Assembly (NCBI GenBank): GCA_016207685.1
Contig: JACQPE010000004.1
Span: 1,559 to 65,558, forward strand
Reading direction: 5' to 3'
DNA length: 64,000 nt
Source: Elusimicrobiota bacterium
GTDB lineage: Bacteria > Elusimicrobiota > Elusimicrobia > JACQPE01
The notes beneath the pieces are model-generated. The model ran no database searches and had not been told where the DNA came from. It saw only the letters and a program-made list of their open reading frames with translations. Below are positions 3,683 through 61,321 of this stretch, piece by piece. The translations under genes were made by a program, and so were the position numbers. Every line of letters begins with the position of its first letter. The first letter of the stretch is position 1.

Positions 3683-5263
3683 TTACGGCGCGAATAATAA
3701 AAAAACGACCACGCCCAAAATGACCGCTGTTGCGGCGGCAGCCACGGTGGCCTTGGCTATTTTCTGCGTTTGGGTATCCTCCCTGGAATCCCCTCGTATC
3801 CGGCGCCATTTTCTGGATTCCTCCGGCGTTAATCCGGTGGAAGACGCCGTTTCTTCCTTATAGTCAATGGTCAATACCTTTTTTTGAAAATTACCCGCGG
3901 CATCCACCGCCGCAATAACCATACGATTTTCTCCTAATTGCAGCGTTGTCTCCATCGAAAAATACCCTTGGCTGTCTGTATCGGCAGATGTCGCTCCCAA
4001 GCGGATGAGCGCCCCGGGCTCCGATCGCCCCTGGATGACCAACGAATTTTTCTTTATCGTTGAGAATTCTTGTTCGGGCTCAGTGATATCCAAAAATGGC
4101 GCTTGGCGGTCCAACGCTAATTTTTGCCAATCGCCAAATGGCCCTTCAAAACCCAAACGATCACGCAAAGAGACCCGATAAACATAAAGTCCGTCATCCA
4201 AACCAGTCCGACCAAAATCAAAAGGTTCCTCAAACGTAGCTGTTTCATCCCAAAGTAAAACGCCCTCCGGGGACTGCGCCACTTGAACACGCAGCAAAGA
4301 AACTTGAGGTATTCTCCGCATGATCCCGGCGCCGCGGCGGCTGCTTCCCATAACCCAACCCAAGGCGCTTCCTCGAAGAACAAAATTCCCTTGGTCTGAA
4401 ATCGTCTTTGTTGATGTAACTACGGATTCAGAATCCCAAAACTTCTCTATCACCACCCGGTTAGGAACTTCCGGCACAGGAACTGCTTGACCCGGAGGCC
4501 GGCCCGCAGGCACCTCCGTGGCAAAACCTTGACGCACAGAAACAGTTTGATTTTGCGCTTGAACATCAGCGACGCCCGCATAAACCTCAACCACTGTGGC
4601 CAAATCTTCGCGTACTCGGGCGCGGTATTCCACATTTTTCGATTTTGGCGTGATTCGGGCCGATTGGGTAACCACGCGAGCGCCCAAAGACCGAATTTCT
4701 CCTGAAATCAGCGCGGCCTCTCCAATGTTTTGCGCACCGGCGCGCTCAGGGCGTATAACGGCAAAAGATTGAGGTCCCAGGACCAAGTCTTCCCCTTGCG
4801 CGAAACGCACCCGCGCTTGGGAGAGCGCGCCGGTGCGCAAGCCGTCATCTTGCCAAATATCCATATTTTTCGAGGCGACTTTCCACAAGGGGGACTCCCG
4901 CCGCCGAAGCTCCACCAGCCGCTGAGTTTCCATGAGCTTAGCTGATCGCAGGCTTTCTTTTACCAATAAAACAGGAATTCTCAAGGTTTGCCCGGGTAAA
5001 GCCATGGCGGGATCCGATGTCGGCAGCTTGTTGTGCCGGGCAATTTCAGGCCAACGGCTAGGGTCCTTGAGATAACGCTCGCTTAAGGACCACCATGTAT
5101 CCCCGGGCTCAATAGCCACTTCTTGATAGAAGCGGGACTCTTCCGCGAAGATAAAATTCCATGTTCCAAGTTCTAGGCTCCAAGTCGAAAATAAAAAAAT
5201 CCCAGCGATTCGGCATCTTGTTTTGAACCGGGAACTGGGAACCGGGAACTGGGAACTAATCAT
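3683..5263 (-). CDS. LysM domain-containing protein with C-terminal transmembrane anchor
   Basis: LysM-like [20 protein letters not shown]...LPGQTLRIP; C-terminal hydrophobic [20 protein letters not shown]; ATG lies 2 nt after the histidine kinase stop (translational coupling); 5' codons are made of the heptamer repeat, so the true start is uncertain. Confidence 0.55.
5225..5256. repeat. heptanucleotide tandem repeat (GAACYGG)x4.5
   Basis: read directly: gaaccgg gaactgg gaaccgg gaactgg gaac, spanning the histidine kinase stop and the start of the LysM gene. Confidence 0.9.
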
Positions 5264-9867: not shown

Positions 9868-9877
9868 AAATAAAAAA

Positions 9878-9895
9878 GTCCAACGTCCAATGTCC
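9878..9895. repeat. heptamer array (GTCCAAY)x2.6
   Basis: gtccaac gtccaat gtcc; inverse complement of the array at 9934..9960. Confidence 0.8.
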
Positions 9896-9933
9896 GCTTT
9901 TTAAAATTTGAAGTAGGGAATTAAAAATTCCAT

Positions 9934-9960
9934 GACTTTGGATTTTGGACTTTGGACTTT
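9934..9960. repeat. heptamer array (GAYTTTG)x4
   Basis: gactttg gattttg gactttg gacttt; the same unit recurs at 24520..24550. Confidence 0.85.
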
Positions 9961-13384: not shown

Positions 13385-14239
13385 TCAGTCTTGTTCATTG
13401 CGGCGCGGCAAGCGCATCACGCCGTCGCCCAAAGAAATCGCGTCGTGGGAATAAATGATTTGGCACTCCGCGCGCTCATCAAAAACCTCATCGGTCACGC
13501 GCACTCTGCCGACGCGCTCGATGAGCCAATAACGCTTGCGTGTTCGCGGATCCGTCGCCTGCCGGGTCTTGCGAATAACCGCTAATTCATCTCCTGGCAC
13601 CAGCCCATCTCTGGACCCTAGGCTAATAAAAATAATGTCCCCCTGCGAGAGCATCACCAACTCCTTGTCGCGGCTGGAAATGATCCGGCCGTCATAATTC
13701 GTGAACTCTCTCTGACGAATAATCCGCCGCTGGGAATTGGTCGCGGTGGATACGGCCATTGTCCCTTCGCTTCCATCGCCCGCAGGAATATCGCTTTCAG
13801 CGGCCTCGGCCACGGGGGTCATTCCGGCCTTGGTTTCTGCGCCCCGTGGTTCTTGTTGAGGCTTGGCCGCCGCCATTGTTGGTTGTTCAGAAGCCTGATG
13901 TTCGGATGCGCCCAATTTTTTTATATCCCCCCTGGAGGCCCCGGAAACATAATCCGGCCCCGGCAGCTTTAATACCTGCCCGGGAACAAGTTGATTAGGA
14001 TCTTTCAAGATGTCGCGATTGATGTCATAAATCGCGCTCCAATCATAACCGTTTTCCCTGAATAAAACCGCGATCTGCCAAAGGGTGTCGCCTTTAACGA
14101 CAACGTAGCGCTCCTCCAAAATTTCCTCTTCGGCCCCGGCCGCGCTGATCTGACATAAAACGCAAGCGGCCATGGCCGCTTGAATAAATATTATCTTTCG
14201 TGACCCCTGACCCCTGACCCATGACCGCTTATTCCTCAT
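13385..14239 (-). CDS. secreted LysM domain protein
   Basis: LysM YVVVKGDTLWQIAVLF...VPGQVLKLP; start moved to MRNKRSW (14239) to avoid a 71-nt overlap with comM; N-terminus reads as a signal peptide and its first codons are the (TGACCCC)n repeat. Confidence 0.55.
   Translation of the reverse strand: MRNKRSWVRGQGSRKIIFIQAAMAACVLCQISAAGAEEEILEERYVVVKGDTLWQIAVLFRENGYDWSAIYDINRDILKDPNQLVPGQVLKLPGPDYVSGASRGDIKKLGASEHQASEQPTMAAAKPQQEPRGAETKAGMTPVAEAAESDIPAGDGSEGTMAVSTATNSQRRIIRQREFTNYDGRIISSRDKELVMLSQGDIIFISLGSRDGLVPGDELAVIRKTRQATDPRTRKRYWLIERVGRVRVTDEVFDERAECQIIYSHDAISLGDGVMRLPRRNEQD
14201..14226. repeat. heptamer array (TGACCCM)x3.7
   Basis: tgacccc tgacccc tgaccca tgacc; a 2-unit copy (tgacccctgaccctg) occurs at 8903..8917. 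Confidence 0.9.
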
Positions 14240-14258: not shown

Positions 14259-15839
14259 TCAAAACGTAGGCGCGCGGTCCAGCGCGCGCATCTTGACGGC
14301 CATGCCCACATCCTCCATGGCGATTTCATCCCTGCCGCATAAATCAGCGGCGGTGCGCGCCACCTTCAAGATGCGGTGATAGGACCGCACTGATAAACTC
14401 AAGCGTTTGATCACCTTGCCTAGAAATTCTTCTTGAGCTTTATCAATTTTGCAATAGGCTTTTATCTCTTTGACGCCCATGGCCGCATTCACGCTGAAAT
14501 GCCGGCCATCGAACCGCCGCCGCTGGCGCGAGCGCGCCTCGATGACGCGCTGACGCACTTGGGAGGACGGCTCCGCGGTCACGCTTGGAGCCTGCCCGCT
14601 GGATAACGCCTCGCGAAACTCTTGGGAGGTGACTTCCACGTGAATGTCCATGCGGTCTAAAATAGGGCCGGAAAATTTACGGCGATAACGAATCACTTGA
14701 GAAGGGCTGCATTGACAGGGCCGCTCGGAAGAGCCCAGATACCCGCAGGGACAGGGATTCGTGGCCGCGATCATCATGAAACGCGCCGGATAGCGGAATC
14801 TACCGGCCGCCCGCGTGACATAAACCTCGCCCTCTTCAAGCGGCTGGCGCAAGGCTTCCAAAACCGGCCGGGAGAACTCGCCCATTTCATCAAGAAACAA
14901 AACCCCGTGATGCGCCAGACTGATTTCCCCGGGCAACGCCTGGGCGCCCCCGCCGATTAAGGAAATGTCGCTTGCCGTATGATGCGGATTGCGAAAAGGC
15001 CGCCGGACTACCAACGAAGCGCCGTCTTGTAAAGCCCCTGTCATGGAATAAATTTTTGTCAGCTCCATGGATTCTTGAAGCGACAAGGGCGGCAAAATTC
15101 CAGCAAAAGCCTTGGCCATCAATGTCTTGCCGACTCCCGGCGGCCCAACTAAAAGCGCATGATGGCCTCCGGCAGCCGCAATTTCCAAGGCTTTCTTGGC
15201 CAAGACATTGCCCACAACATCGCTAAAATCAACGCCATGTCCCAGGCCGTCCTCAAGACCGCCGTCCCATCCGTTCCAAAAATGATCATCATGGCGGAAT
15301 GGCGCCAACTCGCGCCGTCCTGAAATCCAATCCATGGCTTCCCGAAGATGCCCACAGCCGATGACATTCAAGTCGCGGACCAAGGCCGCCTCTTCCTTGT
15401 TATCCACGGGAACAACAACGCCTTGATACCCCTTGTCCCGCGCCAAAATCGCCATGGCCAAAACGCCGCGAACCCGGCGCAACGAGCCATCCAACCCCAA
15501 CTCCCCGGCAAATAAATACCGCGAGAGCTTGCCATGCGCGTCCTGATGATCAAACTGCCCGTCTTGGGCCATGATGCCGCAGGCCATGGCCAAATCAAGC
15601 TCGGCGCCGGCCTTAGGTAAATCCGCGGGCGCGAGATTAATCGTGAGTTTGGCCGCCGGGAAAGGCACGCCGCAGTTGCGGATAGCGGAGAGCACCCGCT
15701 CTCGGGACTCGCGCACTGACGGATCCGGAAGCCCGACCAAAGCAAAGGACGGCACCCCCCGTCGGCGCAAATCCACCTCGACCGTCACCAGCCGCGCGTC
15801 AATCCCATGCAGACAAGCCGAGGAAATTTTACTCGTCAT
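14259..15839 (-). CDS. comM: YifB/ComM family Mg-chelatase-like AAA+ ATPase
   Basis: N-terminus MTSKISSACLHGIDARLVTVEVDL; Walker A HALLVGPPGVGKTLMAKAFAGILPPL. Confidence 0.85.
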   Translation of the reverse strand: MTSKISSACLHGIDARLVTVEVDLRRRGVPSFALVGLPDPSVRESRERVLSAIRNCGVPFPAAKLTINLAPADLPKAGAELDLAMACGIMAQDGQFDHQDAHGKLSRYLFAGELGLDGSLRRVRGVLAMAILARDKGYQGVVVPVDNKEEAALVRDLNVIGCGHLREAMDWISGRRELAPFRHDDHFWNGWDGGLEDGLGHGVDFSDVVGNVLAKKALEIAAAGGHHALLVGPPGVGKTLMAKAFAGILPPLSLQESMELTKIYSMTGALQDGASLVVRRPFRNPHHTASDISLIGGGAQALPGEISLAHHGVLFLDEMGEFSRPVLEALRQPLEEGEVYVTRAAGRFRYPARFMMIAATNPCPCGYLGSSERPCQCSPSQVIRYRRKFSGPILDRMDIHVEVTSQEFREALSSGQAPSVTAEPSSQVRQRVIEARSRQRRRFDGRHFSVNAAMGVKEIKAYCKIDKAQEEFLGKVIKRLSLSVRSYHRILKVARTAADLCGRDEIAMEDVGMAVKMRALDRAPTF

Positions 15840-15901
15840 TGCGCCTCATTATAAATATGAATGAGCCGTTAGCCAACAAAAATTTTCGATAAAATCCTCT
15901 T

Positions 15902-16543
15902 ATGCTCATCGAACTAAATCCTATTGAAGCGCGCCTATTGGGCTCTCTGGTTGAAAAATCCCTGACAACGCCGGGGCTTTATCCGCTGACTTTTAACTCG
16001 CTGATCAACGCTTGCAATCAAAAAACAAACCGGGACCCGGTTATGAGCCTTGATGCGGACACGGCCGGCAAAGGCATCCAAACGCTCATCGAAAAGGGCC
16101 TTGCCGAGCGCCTGCAGCTTCCGGGGGACCGCGTCCCAAAATTTAAGCATCACATCGAGAAACTCTTAAACGGCGCTGATTCAAAACTAATCGGAACAAT
16201 CTGCGTGCTGCTACTTCGAGGGCCTCAAACCCCCGGCGGAATCAAAACGCGCACGGACCGCTTGTGCACCTTCACCGGCACCGCCGAAGTGGAAGGCCTC
16301 CTACAAAAACTTTGTGCTAGAAGCGAGGACCCCTTGGTCGCGCGCCTGCCACGTCAACCGGGACAAAAAGAAACCCGCTATCAGCACCTCTTGGGCGGGC
16401 CCATCGCCCATGCGCCGGCAGAGCCATTCCCAAAAATCGTCCCGCCTTCGGCAGACCGCCTAAGCAACCTGGAAACACGGGTCGGAGCCCTGGAAGCCTT
16501 CGTCAAAACTCTTCAACTCCAACCCCCGCGTAATCAGACCTAA
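15902..16543 (+). CDS. DUF480 (YceH/UPF0502-like) protein
   Basis: N-terminus MLIELNPIEARLLGSLVEKSLTTPGLYPLTFNSL typical of YceH family. Confidence 0.55.
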   Translation: MLIELNPIEARLLGSLVEKSLTTPGLYPLTFNSLINACNQKTNRDPVMSLDADTAGKGIQTLIEKGLAERLQLPGDRVPKFKHHIEKLLNGADSKLIGTICVLLLRGPQTPGGIKTRTDRLCTFTGTAEVEGLLQKLCARSEDPLVARLPRQPGQKETRYQHLLGGPIAHAPAEPFPKIVPPSADRLSNLETRVGALEAFVKTLQLQPPRNQT

Positions 16544-16550
16544 ATTCTCA

Positions 16551-16578
16551 AAAATGTAAAATGTGTAGATGTGACCCC
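16551..16578. repeat. 28-nt intergenic element, copy 1 (aaaatgtaaaatgtgtagatgtgacccc)
   Basis: its reverse complement matches 26 of 28 nt of 31339..31366; it fills the gap between convergent genes. Confidence 0.85.
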
Positions 16579-16583
16579 AATCC

Positions 16584-17340
16584 TTATTGGATTTTTTGAA
16601 GCACATACATCACATTTTTGACAGACCAAAGCCGAAGCCGTAAAACCAATTGTGCCACTCGCGTCAAAAAAATGGACCACTTCATCCGATTGTTCGTCAT
16701 GAACAGAAATCTGGTTAGCAAACGGGGATCAAGGCCGTTGATCACCAACTCTACCCCGCGCGGAAATTTCATATTTGCCGGCCTGATGCATTGATCATGC
16801 CCCTGACCATGACGTATAAAAATAAGCCCCCCGGGCGCCAAGAGATCGACATACTCTGCCAGAACCTTCCGGTGGACCTCCCCGGCTTCTTTCGCCGAGC
16901 TAAAAAATTTCCGGGTAAATGGATGGAACTCCCGGATATAAATCAAATCGTACCGGCCTTGCGCCACGTCTCGGTTGGCTTTGGGATCCGTGCCATCGGC
17001 CACCAAAAAATTGACACCCTCCACGGAACCGTTTCTTTGGCGAGCGATTGCAACTCCCGCATCGGACAAGTCAAAGGCGGTTACTTCTTTCGCTAAGCAC
17101 CGCAGTGCCAGCGTCAAATGTCCCAGACCGCAGCCGACCTCAAGACACCGCCGGATTGTGTGTGTGTGTGTGTGTGTGCTTTTCTATCAGAACAGAAACC
17201 AAATAAACATCTTTAAATACGCGCCATTTCTCCACGATGGTGCTGTTGTGTTCGACCTTGGGGTCGCCTCGGGCATACCCAGCGTTTTGACCGCGCACAT
17301 GATCCATCATCTTATCTCGAACAAAATCAATGTTCCCCAT
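16584..17340 (-). pseudogene. class I SAM-dependent methyltransferase with reading frame broken at a (CA)11 tract (possibly phase-variable rather than dead)
   Basis: Rossmann motif I LEVGCGLGHLTLALR is in frame with ORF 16584..17117 but upstream of its TTG start; the N-terminal part is ORF 17140..17340 ending ...EKHTHTHTH-NPAVS*; one extra CA unit would fuse the two frames. Confidence 0.5.
17157..17178. repeat. (TG)11 dinucleotide microsatellite
   Basis: read directly: 22 nt of alternating tg. Confidence 0.95.
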
Positions 17341-17471
17341 ATTAATTATCTCCTTGTTGAACCTGACAATAGCCGACGCGATCGGGCCGGGCCGTTAAAA
17401 AATTATAACACGTCGGCGGCGCGCCCTGCAGGGGTGTAGGCAAGAAGGTATTCTATTTTTATAATAAGCTC

Positions 17472-22994: not shown

Positions 22995-24376
22995 GCGCCT
23001 AATTCCTTCGCCAATGCGCTGATTAATCGCTTAAACTCTTCTCCACGATGCTCATAATGGCGGAATTGGTCAAAAGAGGCGCAGGCTGGAGAAAGAACGA
23101 TCAAATCTCCGGTTGAGGCATTCATTAAGGCGGCGCGCATCGCCAGTTCCAACGTTTGACAGCGCTCGCCATCGAATGCCGCATGTAGTTCCTTAAAAAT
23201 CAACTGATTCGCCTCTCCGTAACAATAAAATTTTTTGACTTGACCGCCGCGCGCGGCAATCGGGGCATATGATGCGCCCTTATCCTGCCCCCCTAGAAGC
23301 AAATGGATTTTTCCCCCTCTTGATAGCGCCAAGGGTTCCAGCGCCCGCAAAGCCGCGACCACGCTATCCACATTGGTCGCTTTTGAATCATTGATGAATA
23401 ACACATCCCGGATGCTGCCTGCGCGCTCGAGACGATGCGGCGGCGGTTGATACGTCTCCAGGGCCTCTTCAACGCCCACGCGCGGCATATCCGCCTCCAA
23501 AACGGCCAAAAGGGCAGCCATCTGGTTTTCCAAATTATGAACTCCCATTAAATTTGGCGCCGGCTTCATATCATAAGAACGCGCCCCGCGCTGACCGGAA
23601 TAACGGACGCGAAGCATGCCTCCCTCAAACCATGCGCCCTCTTGGAGAGAGCGCGCTGAACTAAAAAAAACGCGGCGGCTTGATGCCCGCTCCAGAACGG
23701 CCCTGGCCGCGGCATCCTCAAAATTACCCACGCCAAGACCTGCGACTTTGACAAAGTCGAACAATTTCGCCTTGGCCGAAACATAATTTTCCCAACTACC
23801 ATGATGGCTTAAATGATCCGCGGTGATGTTCATCAAAACGCCGCAATCAAGCGTCAATGAGGCAGAATCCTCCAGTTGGTAGCTCGAAATTTCCAAAATC
23901 AACGCATGCTTGTTCGTTATTTGGTCAATCGCCTCGATCAGGGGCGAACCAATGTTGCCCGCCGCCAGAGCCGGATAACCGCAAGTTCTAAATAGGTGGC
24001 CGGTCAAATCCGTGGTTGTTGTTTTGCCGTTGGTGCCGGAAATGCCGATGATTATTTTTGGCTTTATCGCCATTGCTCCAAAGGCGAAATCCATCTCGCT
24101 TAAGATGGTCTTGCCCGATTCATTCAATTTTTTAAATATCGATGACCGTGGATCAAGCCCCGGGCTTTTAATGACATAACGCGCCTTCAGCACCGCGTCC
24201 GAATGGCCGCCCAACTCAATGAGCGCCCGAGGGTGGGCTTCCTTGGCGGATTTCCCCAACAAAGGGCTCGCGGCGTTATCGCTGGCTAAAACTTTTGCCT
24301 TGGGATGGCGGCGCCGCAAAAAACGCAACGCGGCCAATCCCGATTTGCCTAATCCCAGGACAGCGTAGTCGAACAC
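22991..24376 (-). CDS. murD: UDP-N-acetylmuramoyl-L-alanine--D-glutamate ligase
   Basis: Mur-ligase P-loop IGISGTNGKTTTTDL; dcw context. Confidence 0.85.
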   Translation of the reverse strand: MFDYAVLGLGKSGLAALRFLRRRHPKAKVLASDNAASPLLGKSAKEAHPRALIELGGHSDAVLKARYVIKSPGLDPRSSIFKKLNESGKTILSEMDFAFGAMAIKPKIIIGISGTNGKTTTTDLTGHLFRTCGYPALAAGNIGSPLIEAIDQITNKHALILEISSYQLEDSASLTLDCGVLMNITADHLSHHGSWENYVSAKAKLFDFVKVAGLGVGNFEDAAARAVLERASSRRVFFSSARSLQEGAWFEGGMLRVRYSGQRGARSYDMKPAPNLMGVHNLENQMAALLAVLEADMPRVGVEEALETYQPPPHRLERAGSIRDVLFINDSKATNVDSVVAALRALEPLALSRGGKIHLLLGGQDKGASYAPIAARGGQVKKFYCYGEANQLIFKELHAAFDGERCQTLELAMRAALMNASTGDLIVLSPACASFDQFRHYEHRGEEFKRLISALAKELGA

Positions 24377-24390
24377 TAGCGGGGGCCCAA

Positions 24391-24415
24391 CGTCCGGCGT
24401 CCGGCGTCCGGCGTC
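24391..24415. repeat. heptamer array (CGTCCGG)x3.5
   Basis: cgtccgg cgtccgg cgtccgg cgtc, 15 nt upstream of the murD start codon. Confidence 0.9.
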
Positions 24416-24519
24416 TTAAGCCTGAAAATAAAAAATTTAATAATGAAATCAGAGAGTGTAACAATGGAAAAATGAAAATCCGAAAATCCAAACTTCCATA
24501 CTCCAAATTTTTTTGATTT

Positions 24520-24550
24520 GACTTTGGACTTTGGACTTTGGACTTTGGAC
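24520..24550. repeat. heptamer array (GACTTTG)x4.4
   Basis: gactttg gactttg gactttg gactttg gac, ending 5 nt from the mraY stop codon. Confidence 0.9.
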
Positions 24551-24554
24551 TTCT

Positions 24555-28204: not shown

Positions 28205-30589
28205 ATGAAAACACCCTCTGCAATAATGGCCCGCCTGGATTACGGCCCCAATCCCGAAACAACCAAAGTCCATTTTAAGCCGATTTATGATCTTTTTATT
28301 AACAATGAATGGGCGCCACCGATATCCGGAAAATACTATGACACCATCAATCCGGCCGCGGGCAAAGCGCTGGCCAAGATTGCCTGGGGCAATGAGCTTG
28401 ATATTGACCGCGCCGTCAAGGCCGCCCAAGAAGGATTTAAAACATGGAAATCTTATTCCCCCTCCGAGCGCAGCCGTCTGATCTTCGCTTTGGCCCGTAT
28501 CATCCAAGAACGCTCCCGCGAATTGGCCATTGCCGAAACGCTCAATAACGGTAAGCCCATTCGCGAATCGCGTGACATTGATATTCCATTGGCGGCGCGG
28601 CACTTTTTCTACCACGCGGGATGGGCCGACAAACTGGAATCAGCATTTGCCGATATTACGATCGCACCCCTGGGCGTTGTCGGTCAAATCATCCCTTGGA
28701 ATTTCCCCTTTCTCATGCTGGCTTGGAAAGTGGCTCCCGCATTGGCTGCCGGCAATGCCGTGATCTTAAAACCCGCGGAAACCACGCCCCTAACAGCGCT
28801 TTTATTTGCCGATATCTGCCGTGATGCAGGGCTGCCGCCAGGCACCGTTAACATCGTCACCGGGCACGGCGACACAGGCGCCGCCTTGGCCAACCACCCA
28901 GGCGTGGCCAAAATCGCTTTTACCGGTTCGACCGAAGTGGGGAAATTAATCCGCAAGGCCACGGCCGGTTCAGGCAAAAAACTGTCCCTCGAACTCGGCG
29001 GTAAATCCCCAACGATTATCTTCGAGGATGCGCCGCTCTATCAAGCCGTTGAAGGCATCGTGGACTCAATTTTCTTTAACCAAGGCCAGGTGTGCTGCGC
29101 CGGCTCCAGACTGTTGCTCGAAGAAAGCATCGCTCCCAAATTTATCGAACTTCTGAAAGACCGGATGGCCAAAATTCGCGTCGGCGACCCCATGGATAAA
29201 AATACGGATATGGGCGCCATTAACTCTCAAGATCAGCTTGATAAAATCCGCCATTACGCCAAAATCGGACAAGATGAGGGAGCCTGCTTGTGGCAAGCTC
29301 CTTGCGAGCTGCCCAAACAGGGTTTTTTCTTTCCCCCAACGATTTTTACGGAAGTTCAAACCACTCATACGATTGTTCAAGAAGAAATTTTCGGCCCGGT
29401 GCTTTCCATCCTGACATTCAGAACCGTGAACGAAGCCGTGGAACTGGCCAATAACACGCCCTATGGCCTGGCTGCGAGCGTCTGGACTAAAGATGTGTCC
29501 AAGATGGTGGCTGTATCGCGAACGCTCAAAGCGGGCACCGTCTGGGGCAATGGCACGAATAAATTCGATGCAGCCGCCGAATTCGGCGGACACAAAGAAT
29601 CCGGCTTTGGCCGCGAAGGCGGTTTGCAGGGACTATGGGAGTACTTGCAAGTTCAAAGTTCAAAGTCCGAAGTCCGAAGTCTCGATGAAATCTACCGCAA
29701 CGCCTCACCGCAACCCGCAACCCGCAACCCGCAACCCGCAACTCATGTATGGAAAACGCCGAAGATGCTCATCGGCGGCAAGCAGGTTCGCACGGAATCA
29801 GGCCGTTATTACAAAATCAACGCCGCCAACGGCCAAAAACTTCTTGCCGATGTTAATCAAGGCTCGCGTAAAGACATTAGAGATGCCGTTGAAGCGGCGC
29901 ATGCCGCTTTGCCTGGATGGTCCAAAACCACGGCCTACAATAGAGGCCAAATTCTCTACCGCATGGCCGAGATGCTTTCCTCCCGCGCCTCTGAATTCGC
30001 CCATGCCATTGCCGCCCAAACAGGGAGTTCCTGGGAAGATGCCGCAGGTGAAGTTTCCTTAACCATCCAACGCCTGCTCCACTATGCCGGCTGGTCGGAT
30101 AAATACACGGGGAGCGTCAATCCCGTGACACAAACGGACTTTAACATCACCTACCCGGAAGCCGTCGGCGTCGTCGCTTTATTCGCGCCCAACACCCGGC
30201 CCCTCTTGGGCCTCATCAGCAAATTAGCGCCCGCTTTTGCAGCCGGCAACACGAGCGTCGTCGTTGCCTCCGAGCAATTTCCCCTAAGCGCCACGGACTT
30301 TATTGAAATTTTAGACAGCTCGGACGTCCCTGCGGGCGTCATTAACATCATAACCGGATTGCATGAAGAACTCCTGCCCACTGTAGCCGAACACCGCGCC
30401 GTGGGCTTGATTGATGTTTCAGGACCCGCCGCACGGGTTAAAATAGCCGAGGAGCTTTCGATCAGCAACCTCAAACGCGTTTATCATGACCCGGAAATGC
30501 CGGATTGGACATCTCCCGAAGCCCAAGGCCGATTGTGGATGCGCCGCTACCTGGAATTTAAAACCGTCTGGATCACCAGCGGCTTTTAA
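28205..30589 (+). CDS. aldehyde dehydrogenase fused in frame to a second, truncated ALDH-like module
   Basis: module 1 complete (LSLELGGKSP, catalytic FFNQGQVCCAGSRLL, end ...GLWEYLQVQ); heptamer-encoded linker SSKSEVRS...PQPATRNPQPAT; module 2 from Met 29765 (MLIGGKQV...) has ALDH N-terminal/NAD-binding-like sequence but no catalytic Cys/Glu region. Confidence 0.7.
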   Translation: MKTPSAIMARLDYGPNPETTKVHFKPIYDLFINNEWAPPISGKYYDTINPAAGKALAKIAWGNELDIDRAVKAAQEGFKTWKSYSPSERSRLIFALARIIQERSRELAIAETLNNGKPIRESRDIDIPLAARHFFYHAGWADKLESAFADITIAPLGVVGQIIPWNFPFLMLAWKVAPALAAGNAVILKPAETTPLTALLFADICRDAGLPPGTVNIVTGHGDTGAALANHPGVAKIAFTGSTEVGKLIRKATAGSGKKLSLELGGKSPTIIFEDAPLYQAVEGIVDSIFFNQGQVCCAGSRLLLEESIAPKFIELLKDRMAKIRVGDPMDKNTDMGAINSQDQLDKIRHYAKIGQDEGACLWQAPCELPKQGFFFPPTIFTEVQTTHTIVQEEIFGPVLSILTFRTVNEAVELANNTPYGLAASVWTKDVSKMVAVSRTLKAGTVWGNGTNKFDAAAEFGGHKESGFGREGGLQGLWEYLQVQSSKSEVRSLDEIYRNASPQPATRNPQPATHVWKTPKMLIGGKQVRTESGRYYKINAANGQKLLADVNQGSRKDIRDAVEAAHAALPGWSKTTAYNRGQILYRMAEMLSSRASEFAHAIAAQTGSSWEDAAGEVSLTIQRLLHYAGWSDKYTGSVNPVTQTDFNITYPEAVGVVALFAPNTRPLLGLISKLAPAFAAGNTSVVVASEQFPLSATDFIEILDSSDVPAGVINIITGLHEELLPTVAEHRAVGLIDVSGPAARVKIAEELSISNLKRVYHDPEMPDWTSPEAQGRLWMRRYLEFKTVWITSGF
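29651..29685. repeat. heptamer array (GTYCRAA)x5 inside coding sequence
   Basis: gttcaaa gttcaaa gtccgaa gtccgaa gtctcga. Confidence 0.9.
29709..29743. repeat. heptamer array (CGCAACC)x5 inside coding sequence
   Basis: cgcaacc x4 then cgcaact; encodes PQPATRNPQPAT in the ALDH frame. Confidence 0.9.
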
Positions 30590-38800: not shown

Positions 38801-38813
38801 GGCGGACAATAGA

Positions 38814-38848
38814 GTTCCAAGTTCCAAGTTCCAAGTTCCAAGTTCAAA
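38814..38848. repeat. heptamer array (GTTCMAA)x5
   Basis: gttccaa x4 then gttcaaa, 14 nt upstream of the ftsI start. Confidence 0.9.
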
Positions 38849-38896
38849 ATGGAAAAGGGCCAAAAAAAGCAGGGCTTCTTTTCCCTCTTGACTTTT

Positions 38897-38924
38897 AACT
38901 TGGAACTTGGATATTGGAACTTTC
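38897..38924. repeat. heptamer array (AACTTGG)x4, inverse complement of 38814..38848
   Basis: aacttgg aacttgg atattgg aactttc. Confidence 0.85.
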
Positions 38925-39203: not shown

Positions 39204-39250
39204 TCGCGCCGCCTTGAAAAACCAAAAGAATGCCGAATGCCGGAATCTAA

Positions 39251-39360
39251 AACGTCGAATTTCGAACGTCGAATTAAGGAACAGGGAAAATTTTGAATTT
39301 TAAATTTTGAATTTTGAATTAAGGAATTCATTTTATTTGTCATTTGAGATTCGTCATTCG
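39251..39360. repeat. compound short-tandem-repeat region: (CGTCGAA/TTTCGAA)x3, (AATTTTR)x4, (GTCATTY)x2
   Basis: aacgtcgaatttcgaacgtcgaatt ... ttttgaattttaaattttgaattttgaatt ... gtcatttgagattcgtcattcg; related to 51470..51506. Confidence 0.85.
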
Positions 39361-40265: not shown

Positions 40266-40670
40266 GCATTACCGGCGGCATCTGCCGGAGGGCCGCCCTT
40301 CATCTATTACAGATCGAGGGAGGAAATTCCGAACTCCGCAGAGCCAGGGTGCCGTCTAAAAGGCGGGGCGCCCGTTGGAGACAACCGGCGCACGGACAGT
40401 GCCACAGAAACGAAACCACCCCATGATCCGTCACGATTAAGGGGAACGGGTGAAACCGTGAGGTAAAAGCTCACGCAGAATCATAGAAATATGAATCCGG
40501 AGGAAAACCCCACCTGGAGCAAGGCTGGATTTAGGAAAACTCCGCCAGGTCAGGCTCAAGACCGGGGTTCCTAAGTCCCTGCAAAGCAGAACGCCGCTTA
40601 GATAAATGGTCCTCGCTTGATTTTTACATCAAGCACAGAATTCGGGGTACAGGCAAGCCGCCGGTAATGC
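40266..40670 (+). ncRNA. rnpB: RNase P RNA (bacterial type)
   Basis: P4-region block GAGGAAAUUCCGAACUCCGCAGAGCCAGGGUGCCG (cf. GAGGAAAGUCCGGGCUCC...GGGCAGGGUGCCAGG); also CACGGACAGUGCCACAGAAACGAAACCACC, GGUGAAACCGUGAGGUAAAAGCUCAC and CCACCUGGAGCAAGGCUGGAUUUAGG; 14-bp terminal helix gcattaccggcggc/gccgccggtaatgc. Confidence 0.8.
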
Positions 40671-51469: not shown

Positions 51470-51506
51470 ATTTTCAATGACGATTTTCGAATGACGAATT
51501 TCGAAT
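51470..51506. repeat. (TTTCGAA/TGACGAA) 14-mer tandem repeat x2.5
   Basis: ttttcaatgacgattttcgaatgacgaatttcgaat; shares the core GACGAATTTCGAA with 39251..39275. Confidence 0.85.
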
Positions 51507-56647: not shown

Positions 56648-56975
56648 TCTGGTCTCCTATGCCGGTACCCGAAGCCGCAATCGTTCCTCTCGGCAATTCA
56701 ATCACCCGATCCGCTTTCCAATAGATACGCGACAGTCTCCAGGGCGCCAGCGTTTCGGCCCCCACAACCTCATTATGCCGGTTAATAAACAAGCAATCAA
56801 TTGGGTACCGCATAAAAAACGTATGCACCTGCGGACACACGGAATATAGGACCATGGCCTCGCCATTGTCCAGCGGACGCTGGCCCAAAAGGCCTTGAAT
56901 ACGCTCCCAAAAACCTCGGGCCAGCCGCAGGCGTCCGGCGATTTCGATGCGGCGCGTGCGGTTTTTTATTACCAA
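56631..56975 (-). CDS. DUF192 family protein
   Basis: ~114 aa with VHTFFMRYPIDCLFIN-type core. Confidence 0.55.
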   Translation of the reverse strand: MVIKNRTRRIEIAGRLRLARGFWERIQGLLGQRPLDNGEAMVLYSVCPQVHTFFMRYPIDCLFINRHNEVVGAETLAPWRLSRIYWKADRVIELPRGTIAASGTGIGDQIDFDG

Positions 56976-58000
56976 ACGAAATCAACGCCCAAAAAGCCCA
57001 GGAGGCCGGAAAAACTCCATGAACCCAAATCCTTGTTGGTCACCCGTGTCGTTTGGCGCTCCGCGTCAACCGATCCGGCAACCGAAGTCGCCGCCTGGTA
57101 ACCCAGCTCCAAACGGATCATGTGATTTCGTGAAGCGGCCCACTCGATACCATACTGAACGCGGCCGGCGAAAACAGTTTGGCTGCGGCTCGCCGAAAGC
57201 AGAACCTGATCGCTGGTGCTCACGGATCCCTCAATAGGGCTTTCGCTGCCATAGTCAATATCCGTATCCACGGAAAACGTATAGGTGCGGTCAACCTTGG
57301 TATTAATAAGCCCAAGGCCGATGAGCCAATGCGGTTTAAGCGCCAGAGACGATTTAGAATCCATCTGAACAAAAAAGATCAATGGAACCTGGCGCATGGA
57401 TTCGTCAATTTCCAGACGCGCGTAAGAATACATGGAATCATCGCCGCCGCCGTCGATGCTTAATGTATCCAATCCAATATCGTTGCTGACGATTCGGTTG
57501 TTGAGCGAGCCATACCCCAAAGAAACACCCACGGCCATGCCGTGGTCAACGTAATAACGATAAACAATTTCCGGTAAAAATCCGGACGGCGACCATTCGG
57601 TCCTGCTAAAACTATAGATGAACGTATCGGACACGCCTGCCGTCTGTGTCGTGACGACGGTATGCAATATATCAACCACATTGTTAGAATGCCAATTGGG
57701 ATTGCCGCCGCCCAGCAAGCTGGGCTGCGAAAAAAAACCAAGCTCAATGCCGAAGGAACTGGCTTCATCTAAATTCCATTCAGAATGCTGCGGGCCCCTG
57801 CTGCGCGAGGAGCGACGCTCATACTCTTCATAACGGCGCGGATCATACCCGTATTCTCGGATCGATGGAACCTCATCCGGAACAGACGGCAAGCTCGAAG
57901 ATGCGGCCCGAAGTTCAACATTCATTGCGCCCAACAATATCCCCAAAACCAAGACACGGGGCCCCTGTTGACGCAGAATCGTCTGCCTGAATCTTTTCAC
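56969..58000 (-). CDS. hypothetical outer-membrane beta-barrel protein (GTG start)
   Basis: start moved to GTG at 58000 (VKRFRQTILRQQGPRVLVLGILLGAMNVELRA is a signal peptide), 1 nt after the ALDH stop; the ORF-track start would overlap ALDH by 265 nt; C-terminus ...FLGVDFVW. Confidence 0.4.
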   Translation of the reverse strand: MKRFRQTILRQQGPRVLVLGILLGAMNVELRAASSSLPSVPDEVPSIREYGYDPRRYEEYERRSSRSRGPQHSEWNLDEASSFGIELGFFSQPSLLGGGNPNWHSNNVVDILHTVVTTQTAGVSDTFIYSFSRTEWSPSGFLPEIVYRYYVDHGMAVGVSLGYGSLNNRIVSNDIGLDTLSIDGGGDDSMYSYARLEIDESMRQVPLIFFVQMDSKSSLALKPHWLIGLGLINTKVDRTYTFSVDTDIDYGSESPIEGSVSTSDQVLLSASRSQTVFAGRVQYGIEWAASRNHMIRLELGYQAATSVAGSVDAERQTTRVTNKDLGSWSFSGLLGFLGVDFVW

Positions 58001-58001
58001 G

Positions 58002-59555
58002 TTATTGATCAATCTGGGCTTTTTGAAGCCGCCCGGAATAATCCACATATACCGCTTTCCATTCGGTAAAAATATCAAGAACCGCTTGGCCTGCTTCGCG
58101 ATGGCCGTTGCCCGTGTGCTTGACACCGCCAAAAGGCAAATGCACTTCCGCGCCGATCGTGGGCGCGTTGATATAGGTAATTCCTGTTTGCATGTCCCGC
58201 ACCGCCTGCATGACGCGATTGACATCCCTTGTGTAGACCGAACCCGAAAGGCCATAGCGAGTGCCATTCATCACCTGGAGCCCCTGTTCAAAAGTCTTAA
58301 CCTTAATGACCATCAACACAGGCCCAAAAATTTCTTCTTGAGCCAAGCGCATGTCCGGGGCGCCTTCAAAAATAGTCGGCTCAAAATAAAATCCTTGCCC
58401 CAAGACGCCTTCCGTAGCCCGGCGGCCTCCCAAAAGCAGCCTTGCTTTGTCCTCGCGTAATCCGATGTCCACATAGCGCTTCACCGTTTCGAGCTGGTCC
58501 TCGCTCACCAAAGGCCCCACTTGGGAATCTGCATCAAGGCCATTGCCCAATTTTAATTTTGAGGCCGCTTGGACCAATTTCTCGATCAACGCTCCATAAA
58601 TCCCCTCCTGAATAATGAGGCGGCTGGTGGCTGTGCAGCGCTGCCCCGTCGTGCCAAAAGCGCCCCATAGAGCGCCCTCAATCGCCAAGTCTACGTCCGC
58701 ATCATCAAGCACCAGTTGAGCGTTTTTGCCGCCCATCTCCAAAGAAACTTTTTTAAACAATTGACCGCAAGCCGCTGCGATCGAGGACCCCACCTCGGAG
58801 GATCCCGTAAAAGAAATCAGCCGGACCACCGGTGACTCAATCAACGCTTGTCCCAAGACGGAGCCGCTGCCATGAACCAAATTAACGACGCCCGCCGGAA
58901 TACCCGCCTCTTCCAAAATTTCCACCAAAAGCGTGGCGGTCGCCGGGGTGCAGGATGCCGGCTTAAAAACAACCGTGTTACCGCACAAAAGCGCCGGAAA
59001 TATTTTCCATGAAGGAATCGCCATGGGAAAATTCCATGGCGTGATCAAGCCGCAAACGCCGATGGAACTCCTCACGGTCATGGCAAATTTATCGGCCAAC
59101 TCGGAAGTTGTCGTGACGCCAAATAGACGCCGGCCTTCGCCCGCGAAATAAAGCGCCGTGTCAATAGCTTCCTGCACATCGCCCCGGGTTTCTTTTAACA
59201 CCTTGCCCATCTCTTGAGTCATCACTTGGGCCAAGGCTTCTTTGCGTTCGAGCAAAACCTGGTAGGCCCGCAAAATCCGTTCAGCCCTCTTTGGCGCCGG
59301 CACCAATCTCCACGAGGCGTACGCCTCCGAGGCTGCAACGACGGCCTCATTCAAATCCTCCGCCGCTGATGATGGCCACCGGCCCAAAAGCTCTCCGGTT
59401 GCCGGATTAATATTGTCAAATGTCTTGCCGGAACGCGACGCCTTCCATTGGCCATTGATATAGTTATAAGCGCCGGGCAGCCGGACCGCCCTGGAAACGC
59501 CATCCATGATATCGGCTATTTTTTTATTAGTCCTATGCAATGTCGTGCTTGCCAT
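58002..59555 (-). CDS. NAD(P)-dependent aldehyde dehydrogenase
   Basis: [11 protein letters not shown] and catalytic [14 protein letters not shown]. Confidence 0.85.
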
Positions 59556-60022: not shown

Positions 60023-60094
60023 TGTCCCCAAGTGGAATTGAACCACTATCTTTGCCTTCGCAGGGCAACACTCTATCCGTTGAGCTATGGGGAC
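60023..60094 (-). tRNA. tRNA-Arg, anticodon GCG
   Basis: cloverleaf folded by hand from GTCCCCATAGCTCAACGGATAGAGTGTTGCCCTGCGAAGGCAAAGATAGTGGTTCAATTCCACTTGGGGACA; acceptor 7 bp, Arg-type D-arm, anticodon loop CTGCGAA. Confidence 0.75.
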
Positions 60095-60765: not shown

Positions 60766-60854
60766 GGAGAGATGCGTGAGCGGTTGAAACGGCACGCCTG
60801 GAAAGCGTGTATAGCCGAAAGGCTATCGAGGGTTCGAATCCCTCTCTCTCCGCA
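60766..60854 (+). tRNA. tRNA-Ser, anticodon GGA
   Basis: class II tRNA: acceptor GGAGAGA/TCTCTCC, D-loop GAGCGGTTGAA identical to E. coli tRNA-Ser, anticodon loop CTGGAAA, long variable arm TAGCC-GAAA-GGCTA, T-loop TTCGAAT; T-run follows. Confidence 0.85.
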
Positions 60855-61321
60855 CTTTTTTAGAGAAAAAGTACGGTTCGGACGGCCCCTGCTCGGAGGG
60901 CAGGGACCCTTGAAGCGCCTGAGGCGCGTTGAGCCGGAGGCGCTGGGACGAATATAAAATATGTCCCATTCTCTCCGCAGAAGTTGACAGATTTCAAAAC
61001 TCTACCGCAAGAAAGCCGCGTTCATGTTGGGCAACGGGCGGAGCAATAGCTCAACCGTCTTTCTAGGCCATTCATGGTTGAGATTATCCTCCGTTGTGGG
61101 TATCCCAGCGCCTCGGCGCACACAACAATCCCTGTTTTTGGGGCTCAATAGGTTCATTTGCATTATGGCCTGTCGTTTTGCTGTCTACGCTTCACGACCA
61201 GCGTCGCCGAGGACCTTGCAAGACGCGCTACGACCCTGCGGGCTAGGCTTTGGGTTGATGGAACTTGCATCCATTGGATTTCTACGGCTTTCCTGGCGCA
61301 GGGGGGTTAGGGGTTAAAAAA

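Follow-up and report, generated by a model that had tools for sequence, protein, structure and literature searches.

Does the long dinucleotide repeat that interrupts a methyltransferase gene of this Elusimicrobiota bacterium act as an on/off switch, or has it simply broken the gene? In the 64-kb stretch of DNA analysed (hereafter the window), the tract is a (TG)11 of 22 nt at positions 17157..17178 (100% matches, 11.0 copies as estimated by TRF), which on the coding minus strand reads (CA)11, encodes a His-Thr run and marks the site of a frameshift. It is the sole dinucleotide run of at least five units in the window (regular-expression census), the runner-up having 4.5 units, and chance alone would not be expected to produce a perfect dinucleotide run of 22 nt in 64 kb. 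An apparent (GA)6 at 23645 was discarded, as it consists of GAGAGA followed by GCGCGC and hence is no six-unit dinucleotide run.

Along the minus strand, positions 17340..16584 read ATG…GAA AAG (CA)11 AAT CCG GCG GTG TCT TGA. The N-terminal segment of the gene is a 66-aa ORF (17140..17340, minus strand) that starts at the ATG at 17340 and ends in LIEKHTHTHTHNPAVS, its TGA stop (17142..17140) lying five codons 3' of the tract. On the other side, the ORF list holds a mechanically called C-terminal ORF of 177 aa with a TTG start (16584..17117, minus strand), so that TRF and the ORF list agree with the original prediction in placing the repeat between an N- and a C-terminal ORF. Translation and frame analysis give a larger methyltransferase frame (16584..17183, minus strand), open from 17183 through the tract to the stop at 16584, which includes motif I and the whole Rossmann-type catalytic domain. 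Motif I itself (LEVGCGLG, the glycine-rich SAM-binding loop, 17121..17144, minus strand) lies 5' of the TTG at 17117; it had been correctly recognized as being in frame upstream of that start, but the frame extends back to 17183, well beyond the TTG-started ORF. The stop predicted directly 5' of the repeat in this frame is there as well, as a TGA-TAG pair (17189..17184) which shuts it immediately before (CA)11.

Moving from the N-terminal into the methyltransferase frame takes a +1 shift (equivalent to -2), and the overlap between the two frames comprises the repeat plus 15 nt. The repeat unit is not a multiple of three in length, and gain or loss of units toggles in silico between an intact ORF and early termination: replacing the tract with 9, 12 or 15 CA units yielded a single ORF of 250, 252 or 254 aa, and all other counts tried yielded a product of 64-76 aa, with a stop 5 or 14 codons past the tract. 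Either one added or two lost CA units thus restore a single ORF in silico. The fusion of the two frames by (CA)12 was recovered as originally proposed, although at 252 aa instead of the ~245 aa given there.

The two ORFs were then compared with intact relatives. An exhaustive HMMER scan of 1.84 billion representative proteins returned 134 matches, including 25 at E<=1e-10. Three of these homologues cover both halves: P0002 (247 aa, 48% identity, query residues 5-250 against subject 3-244), P0003 (254 aa, 39% identity) and P0004 (245 aa, 35% identity), all three colinearly. In the alignment the homologues are single unbroken ORFs, and the N-terminal ORF aligns with the N-termini of all three (…Q..GYA…ST…RI.KELYL…L.E); the doubt raised in the original prediction as to whether the N-terminal part is genuine is settled by these intact proteins of 245-254 aa, colinear over both halves. 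Within motif I, G70 and G74 are invariant and L67 and C71 at least 90% conserved, and D91 is likewise invariant (alignment A1).

The His-Thr run falls, in this alignment, in a short linker just 5' of LEVGCG, which varies among homologues in both sequence and length and is clearly longer in P0008. A (CA)9 tract would give a linker of the same length as in P0002-P0004, and (CA)12 one that is two residues longer. This variation among homologues suggests that the loop tolerates changes in length. No aligned homologue has a His-Thr run at the linker, and no repeat occurs at the equivalent position in the homologue DNA, so the expectation that relatives might carry the same gene with an in-frame repeat was not borne out among these homologues; the repeat is lineage-specific. 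A repeat habit common to the whole family was considered and set aside, since the truncated homologues P0054 and P0008 break where short TARA scaffolds diverge, not at repeats. On these two ocean scaffolds (L015 and L016) homology ends abruptly mid-gene and unrelated sequence follows, with repeated CGAGCATGTTTTTT-like motifs in the non-homologous part of L015; both may be chimeric scaffolds or carry insertions.

Codon usage and the predicted structure point the same way. In a log-likelihood model of codon usage that was trained on 33 long window ORFs (mean of 0.31 and sd of 0.15 for genic 165-nt chunks), the N-terminal part scored +0.354 in frame vs. -0.373 and -0.661 off frame, and the C-terminal part +0.202 in the methyltransferase frame. 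The AlphaFold model of the (CA)12 protein (from a 31-sequence alignment) reached a pLDDT of 93.1 and a pTM of 0.91, with helices at residues 3-23, 27-33 and 38-55 (pLDDT about 94), a loop at 56-62 and strand beta-1 at 63-69. Among 10-residue blocks, pLDDT drops below 90 only in the first (78), the one holding the His-Thr run (76) and residues 231-240 (84). In the model, the His-Thr run (55-62) forms the loop before motif I, itself made of beta-1 and the loop that follows. Genic codon usage, colinear full-length homologues and a confident fold together establish that both ORFs belong, as its two halves, to a single real class I SAM-methyltransferase gene that is intact apart from its frame, and the on-state protein is, as far as alignment and model allow us to judge, plausibly functional.

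Such an intact gene bears directly on the possibility that we are looking at an incidental recent pseudogene, i.e., a dispensable, horizontally acquired methyltransferase gene heading for loss, in which a (CA)n tract expanded by chance within a tolerant loop and slipped out of frame without any regulatory role; in that case the slippage would still be real. The 252 codons hold a single frameshift and no second lesion, and no decay beyond that first frameshift (further lesions or relaxed constraint) was seen in the gene. Of the 57 columns without variation among the three intact homologues, the query keeps 44 (77%), within the leave-one-out range among the homologues themselves (59-88%); the family-invariant residues are therefore retained as in intact relatives, and codon usage is equally unspoiled. 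The tract is also perfectly uninterrupted, which makes reversion mechanistically easy. All of these points speak against a pseudogene, yet they show only that the frameshift is young or reversible.

The public annotation reflects the broken frame. The record MBI4368626.1 (177 aa, [quoted passage not shown]) corresponds to the TTG-started part only and lacks motif I, and such a fragment, we presume from what is generally known of class I methyltransferases, cannot bind SAM. It should be read instead as a fragment of a frameshifted 252-aa gene.

As for the type of enzyme, Pfam profiles matched the fusion for Methyltransf_25 (41 bits, cutoff 27), Methyltransf_11 (40.9, cutoff 21.2) and Methyltransf_12 (36.5, cutoff 30), with Methyltransf_31 and Methyltransf_23 also above their gathering scores; these matches start at about residue 64 of the fusion, and the 66-aa ORF alone has no Pfam match. 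NCBIfam gave only generic, sub-threshold matches to the fusion. In the model, strands at 63-69, 84-91, 110-114, 131-137 and 168-180 alternate with helices, the invariant D91 being the acidic residue after beta-2, and Foldseek returned a probability of 1.00 to many class I methyltransferases. The best fold matches in the PDB are phosphoethanolamine N-methyltransferases (PfPMT), the plantazolicin methyltransferases BamL and BpumL, NodS, prenyl-diphosphate C-methyltransferases and TleD, at TM-scores of about 0.5. Profiles, motif I and predicted fold thus concur on a class I (Rossmann-fold) SAM-dependent methyltransferase.

The same profile searches and model indicate that this is not a DNA methyltransferase. 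Neither Pfam nor NCBIfam matched any of the DNA-methyltransferase families (N6_N4_Mtase, N6_Mtase, MethyltransfD12, DNA_methylase) or a target-recognition domain, the 252-aa sequence contains no PP[YFW] motif, and the structural neighbours listed are small-molecule, lipid and natural-product methyltransferases and their relatives, with no DNA methyltransferase among them. A PADLOC match to mad2 was dismissed, since it extends over no more than the generic core of a methyltransferase (108 of the 492 positions in the profile). No restriction or specificity subunit gene adjoins the locus, where the neighbours are DUF480, ComM-like, PPDK and Wzy_C protein genes. The original remark that phase variation often occurs in methyltransferases applies to the DNA methyltransferases of restriction-modification systems, and does not carry over to a gene which has neither a match to such a family nor a restriction partner.

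The homologue family is rare and patchy, its matches in genomes being limited to one MAG each of Rhodospirillales and Halobacteriovoraceae plus an unclassified bacterium. The Rhodospirillales homologue (46% identity) sits in a cluster with the order nucleotidyltransferase, two NAD-dependent epimerase/dehydratases, GT2, methyltransferase, PMT_2 (GT-C) and DegT aminotransferase. Other homologue surroundings, judged by eye, include a DxD-containing, possibly GT2-like fragment upstream in L001 (no Pfam match), a 636-aa hydrophobic and apparently polytopic protein (no Pfam match) followed by a flavin oxidoreductase downstream in L002, and a GFO/IDH/MocA oxidoreductase downstream in L008; the context of the Halobacteriovoraceae homologue is unrelated to glycans. 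A conserved module of methyltransferase and membrane protein was not retained, as the large downstream proteins of L002 and L004 (in one frame) and the Wzy_C protein of the window are mutually dissimilar; another frame of L004 carries PMT_2. Taken with the profiles and the model, this makes a sugar, a glycan or another small molecule the most likely substrate, for what is a new, uncharacterised methyltransferase subfamily.

In the genome studied here, the gene is solitary, with the DUF480 gene convergent and the PPDK gene divergent. TopA, DprA and ComM lie on one side, and a Wzy_C protein together with ftsW, murD, mraY and murF (the dcw cluster) on the other, so that it sits among housekeeping genes and outside any glycan cluster. 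No other long frame-shifting repeat was found inside a gene of the 64-kb window, and a wider repertoire of contingency genes is thus not evident.

Repeats of another kind are abundant between the genes. The window holds 10 perfect 7-bp tandem arrays of at least three perfect copies (TRF), vs. 0-1 in shuffled sequences, and arrays of 3-5 copies occupy intergenic spacers at 5157-5257, 9877-9960, 14201-14226, 24391-24415, 24470-24552, 38813-38922, 39228-39320 and 51470-51506. Their units are related (CCAAGTT, CAAAGTC, CAAAATT, CGAAT-type), and the arrays, mostly located between genes, often form inverted pairs 30-60 nt apart that give long hairpins in the transcribed strand (z = -7.4, -5.0, -3.7 and -2.9). 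They recall what we take to be comparable elements, the STRR heptamers of cyanobacteria, and may represent terminators, REP-like elements or mobile elements. The products of the genes beside these arrays, sought for a comparison of copy number between assemblies, had no database record. One set of arrays lies within a gene: a 794-aa ORF (28205-30589, plus strand) joins in frame a complete aldehyde dehydrogenase (Pfam Aldedh, residues 40-485) to a partial Aldedh-like domain (523-742), through a 32-residue linker encoded wholly by three adjacent heptamer arrays (29649-29742), where a change in copy number would uncouple the two Aldedh parts. A second, complete Aldedh gene, which shares 37% identity with that at 28205, is the upstream member (58002-59555, minus strand) of a pair of same-strand mechanical ORFs that overlap by 266 nt; the downstream member (56969-58267, minus strand, 432 aa) has no Pfam match and its true start is probably further in. 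Rfam also identified a bacterial RNase P class A RNA (40275-40665, plus strand, 176 bits), tRNAs at 60023-60094 (minus strand) and 60766-60852 (plus strand), and a group II intron D1-D4-6 fragment (61092-61267, minus strand, 62 bits), which lies close to the tRNA genes in an RNA-rich inter-ORF stretch (59.6-61.3 kb).

The first point to establish for the repeat is whether its length is real. An in-frame allele such as (CA)12 could have been miscounted in the consensus, the source being a metagenome-assembled genome, and dinucleotide repeats are prone to PCR stutter. However, a Logan contig of run SRR12113385 (L007, 1,640 bp, corresponding to window 15773-17412) is identical to the MAG over about 1,624 nt, its tract again being exactly (CA)11, and differs by one synonymous SNP in the DUF480 gene (window 15922). 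The end of this contig is a Nextera adapter, CTGTCTCTTATACACATCT, which points to Illumina reads, and such reads easily span a 22-nt tract. Finding the same 11 units in a second, k-mer-based assembly makes an assembler miscount or mis-assembly unlikely, even if the two assemblies may share reads, and none of the other window genes checked was seen to be broken. Overall, we consider a sequencing or assembly artefact quite improbable, and the 11 units of the original prediction were reproduced. As side observations, the public SRR12113385 assembly contains untrimmed adapter, and the SNP at 15922 represents minor strain variation in the population.

Other repeat lengths were not recovered. The two public copies of the locus (MAG and Logan SRR12113385) both have 11 units, and L007 runs straight through the tract, which makes a second abundant allele in that sample less likely. 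DNA patterns built from the exact flanks and a gap of variable length detected no other repeat count in genome and metagenome contig collections, and a word-indexed search of 5.8 billion proteins, with the fusion and then the N-terminal ORF as query, retrieved nothing beyond the two fragments of the window itself. When the products of the flanking DUF480 and PPDK genes were looked up by exact match, they led to the same Logan contig or to nothing, and a look-up of P0001 returned no record. There is no close orthologue in these data, the best being 48% identical (Logan, on a 1.6-kb contig) and 46% identical (Rhodospirillales MAG), with metagenome relatives at or below 38%.

These observations are where an incidental pseudogene draws its strength: the off allele alone is seen, in two assemblies; the family is rare and patchy across phyla (the 25 matches at E<=1e-10 among 1.84 billion), a pattern typical of accessory genes that are gained and lost; the gene has no pathway partners nearby in this genome; and no homologue has a repeat at that position. 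Set against the single lesion and the conserved residues described above, we regard loss without regulation as a genuine possibility, to be entertained tentatively and ranked second. Counting against a switch are the 11-unit allele as the only one in the public copies, the lack of a close orthologue, the solitary gene and the uncultured environmental lineage.

The gene also carries plausible signals for its expression, with a Shine-Dalgarno-like AAGGAG (17350..17355, minus strand) 9 nt 5' of the ATG at 17340 and an extended -10-like promoter element, TGTTATAAT (17402..17410, minus strand), both read from the sequence and assigned putative functions. The latter lies in the 131-bp divergent spacer common to the pyruvate phosphate dikinase gene, and was not called by a promoter consensus scan, which requires a -35 element.

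The 11-unit allele might not be truly off if recoding provided a constitutive low level of full-length enzyme, either through a -2 slip of the P-site tRNA (CAC re-pairing with CAC) or through RNA polymerase adding one CA unit. The geometry would allow it, since shifting by -2 on a period-2 repeat leads into the methyltransferase frame, and nothing else speaks for it. The minus-strand region 17200..17050 is not unusually folded (z = +1.39, with 189 of 200 shuffles folding at least as well), Rfam has no match at the locus, and the homologues are single ORFs without a slippery tract, so that the arrangement is not conserved; of the hallmarks of programmed ribosomal frameshifting, neither a conserved slippery site nor a stimulatory downstream RNA structure was found. 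We know of no established bacterial precedent for efficient recoding on (CA)n, and hold this explanation to be very unlikely, the least probable of those considered here.

We therefore favor, with moderate confidence, an on/off locus that works by strand slippage, is currently off and encodes a methyltransferase of glycans or small molecules. The proposed switch would be a single accessory gene for a class I methyltransferase of ~250 aa, with (CA)n in the loop between an N-terminal helical cap and motif I, where replication slippage would add or remove CA units. Tracts of 9, 12 or 15 units would yield the full enzyme with a (His-Thr)n loop, and other counts would lead to early termination. The sampled population, at 11 units, would produce no enzyme but a 66-aa fragment, given that translation could start downstream only at a codon 3' of motif I, and a single slip of +1 unit would switch the gene on again. 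A perfect (CA)11 should slip by one unit in either direction far more often than ordinary sites mutate. Levinson and Gutman reportedly observed in 1987 that poly-CA/TG tracts frameshift often in E. coli, the more so when mismatch repair is missing. Selection in prokaryotes generally acts against dinucleotide repeats from about 10 bp upward, since these are mutable, and (CA)11 exceeds the length of ~10 bp treated as highly mutable for dimeric repeats (PMC3315296). We infer that the tract slips at high frequency in this organism and that switching is reversible and selected. The original suggestion of a phase-variation candidate in its OFF state thus holds for the frame lesion in a perfect tract, its reversal by one unit and the reproduced 11 units, and fails in its analogy to DNA methyltransferases.

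This layout is comparable to several known systems. In Helicobacter pylori, outer-membrane and LPS genes with CT or AG tracts (e.g., oipA) have well-documented repeat-length polymorphism between strains; they resemble the present gene in having a coding dinucleotide repeat near the 5' end and frame-dependent on/off states, but encode membrane proteins or glycosyltransferases, whereas here a single allele is seen in an uncultured environmental bacterium. The Type III mod gene mmyCImod of Mycoplasma mycoides is off with (AG)12 and on with (AG)10 (PMC3498834). Similarly to our locus, it has a perfect dinucleotide tract of about 11-12 units in the 5' third of a methyltransferase ORF, a sequenced allele that is out of frame with a stop soon after the tract, and a protein restored by a change of one or two units. 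However, mmyCImod encodes a DNA adenine methyltransferase with a restriction partner and its tract is common to related species, while our candidate is a small-molecule-type enzyme with no restriction gene nearby, homologues free of the tract and no on clone seen. The same distinction applies to phasevarions, in which phase-variable Type I or III DNA methyltransferases control regulons (PMC5909438, PMC7383803): the candidate shares the layout of a methyltransferase gene switched at random by a repeat, but has no DNA-methyltransferase domains and no restriction-modification context, and implies no epigenetic regulon.

The closest functional analogy is most likely a surface-glycan methyltransferase of the cj1426 type, given the glycan-cluster context of the closest homologues. 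In Campylobacter jejuni, cj1426 is a poly-G phase-variable capsule heptose 6-O-methyltransferase, with cj1421 and cj1422 as neighbours (PMC8437040). It likewise places a simple-repeat frameshift switch in a non-DNA methyltransferase, in its case one that decorates a surface glycan. Its tract is a homopolymeric G run and belongs to the capsule locus of a host-adapted pathogen, in whose genome dozens of such loci occur, whereas ours is a dinucleotide tract outside any glycan cluster.

The mechanism proposed here is a textbook one, in which the host and the enzyme subfamily are new, and the gain is in that sense incremental. A full-text literature search retrieved no paper treating phase variation in Elusimicrobia, only co-mentions of the two terms in four papers. 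If the tract does switch, it would add a rare (CA)n example and extend repeat-driven bet-hedging beyond host-adapted pathogens (Neisseria, Haemophilus, Campylobacter, Helicobacter, Mycoplasma) to an uncultured environmental phylum. It is thus tempting to speculate that this would be the first repeat-driven contingency locus in Elusimicrobia, through which a free-living bacterium would vary the methylation of its surface glycans, for example against phages.
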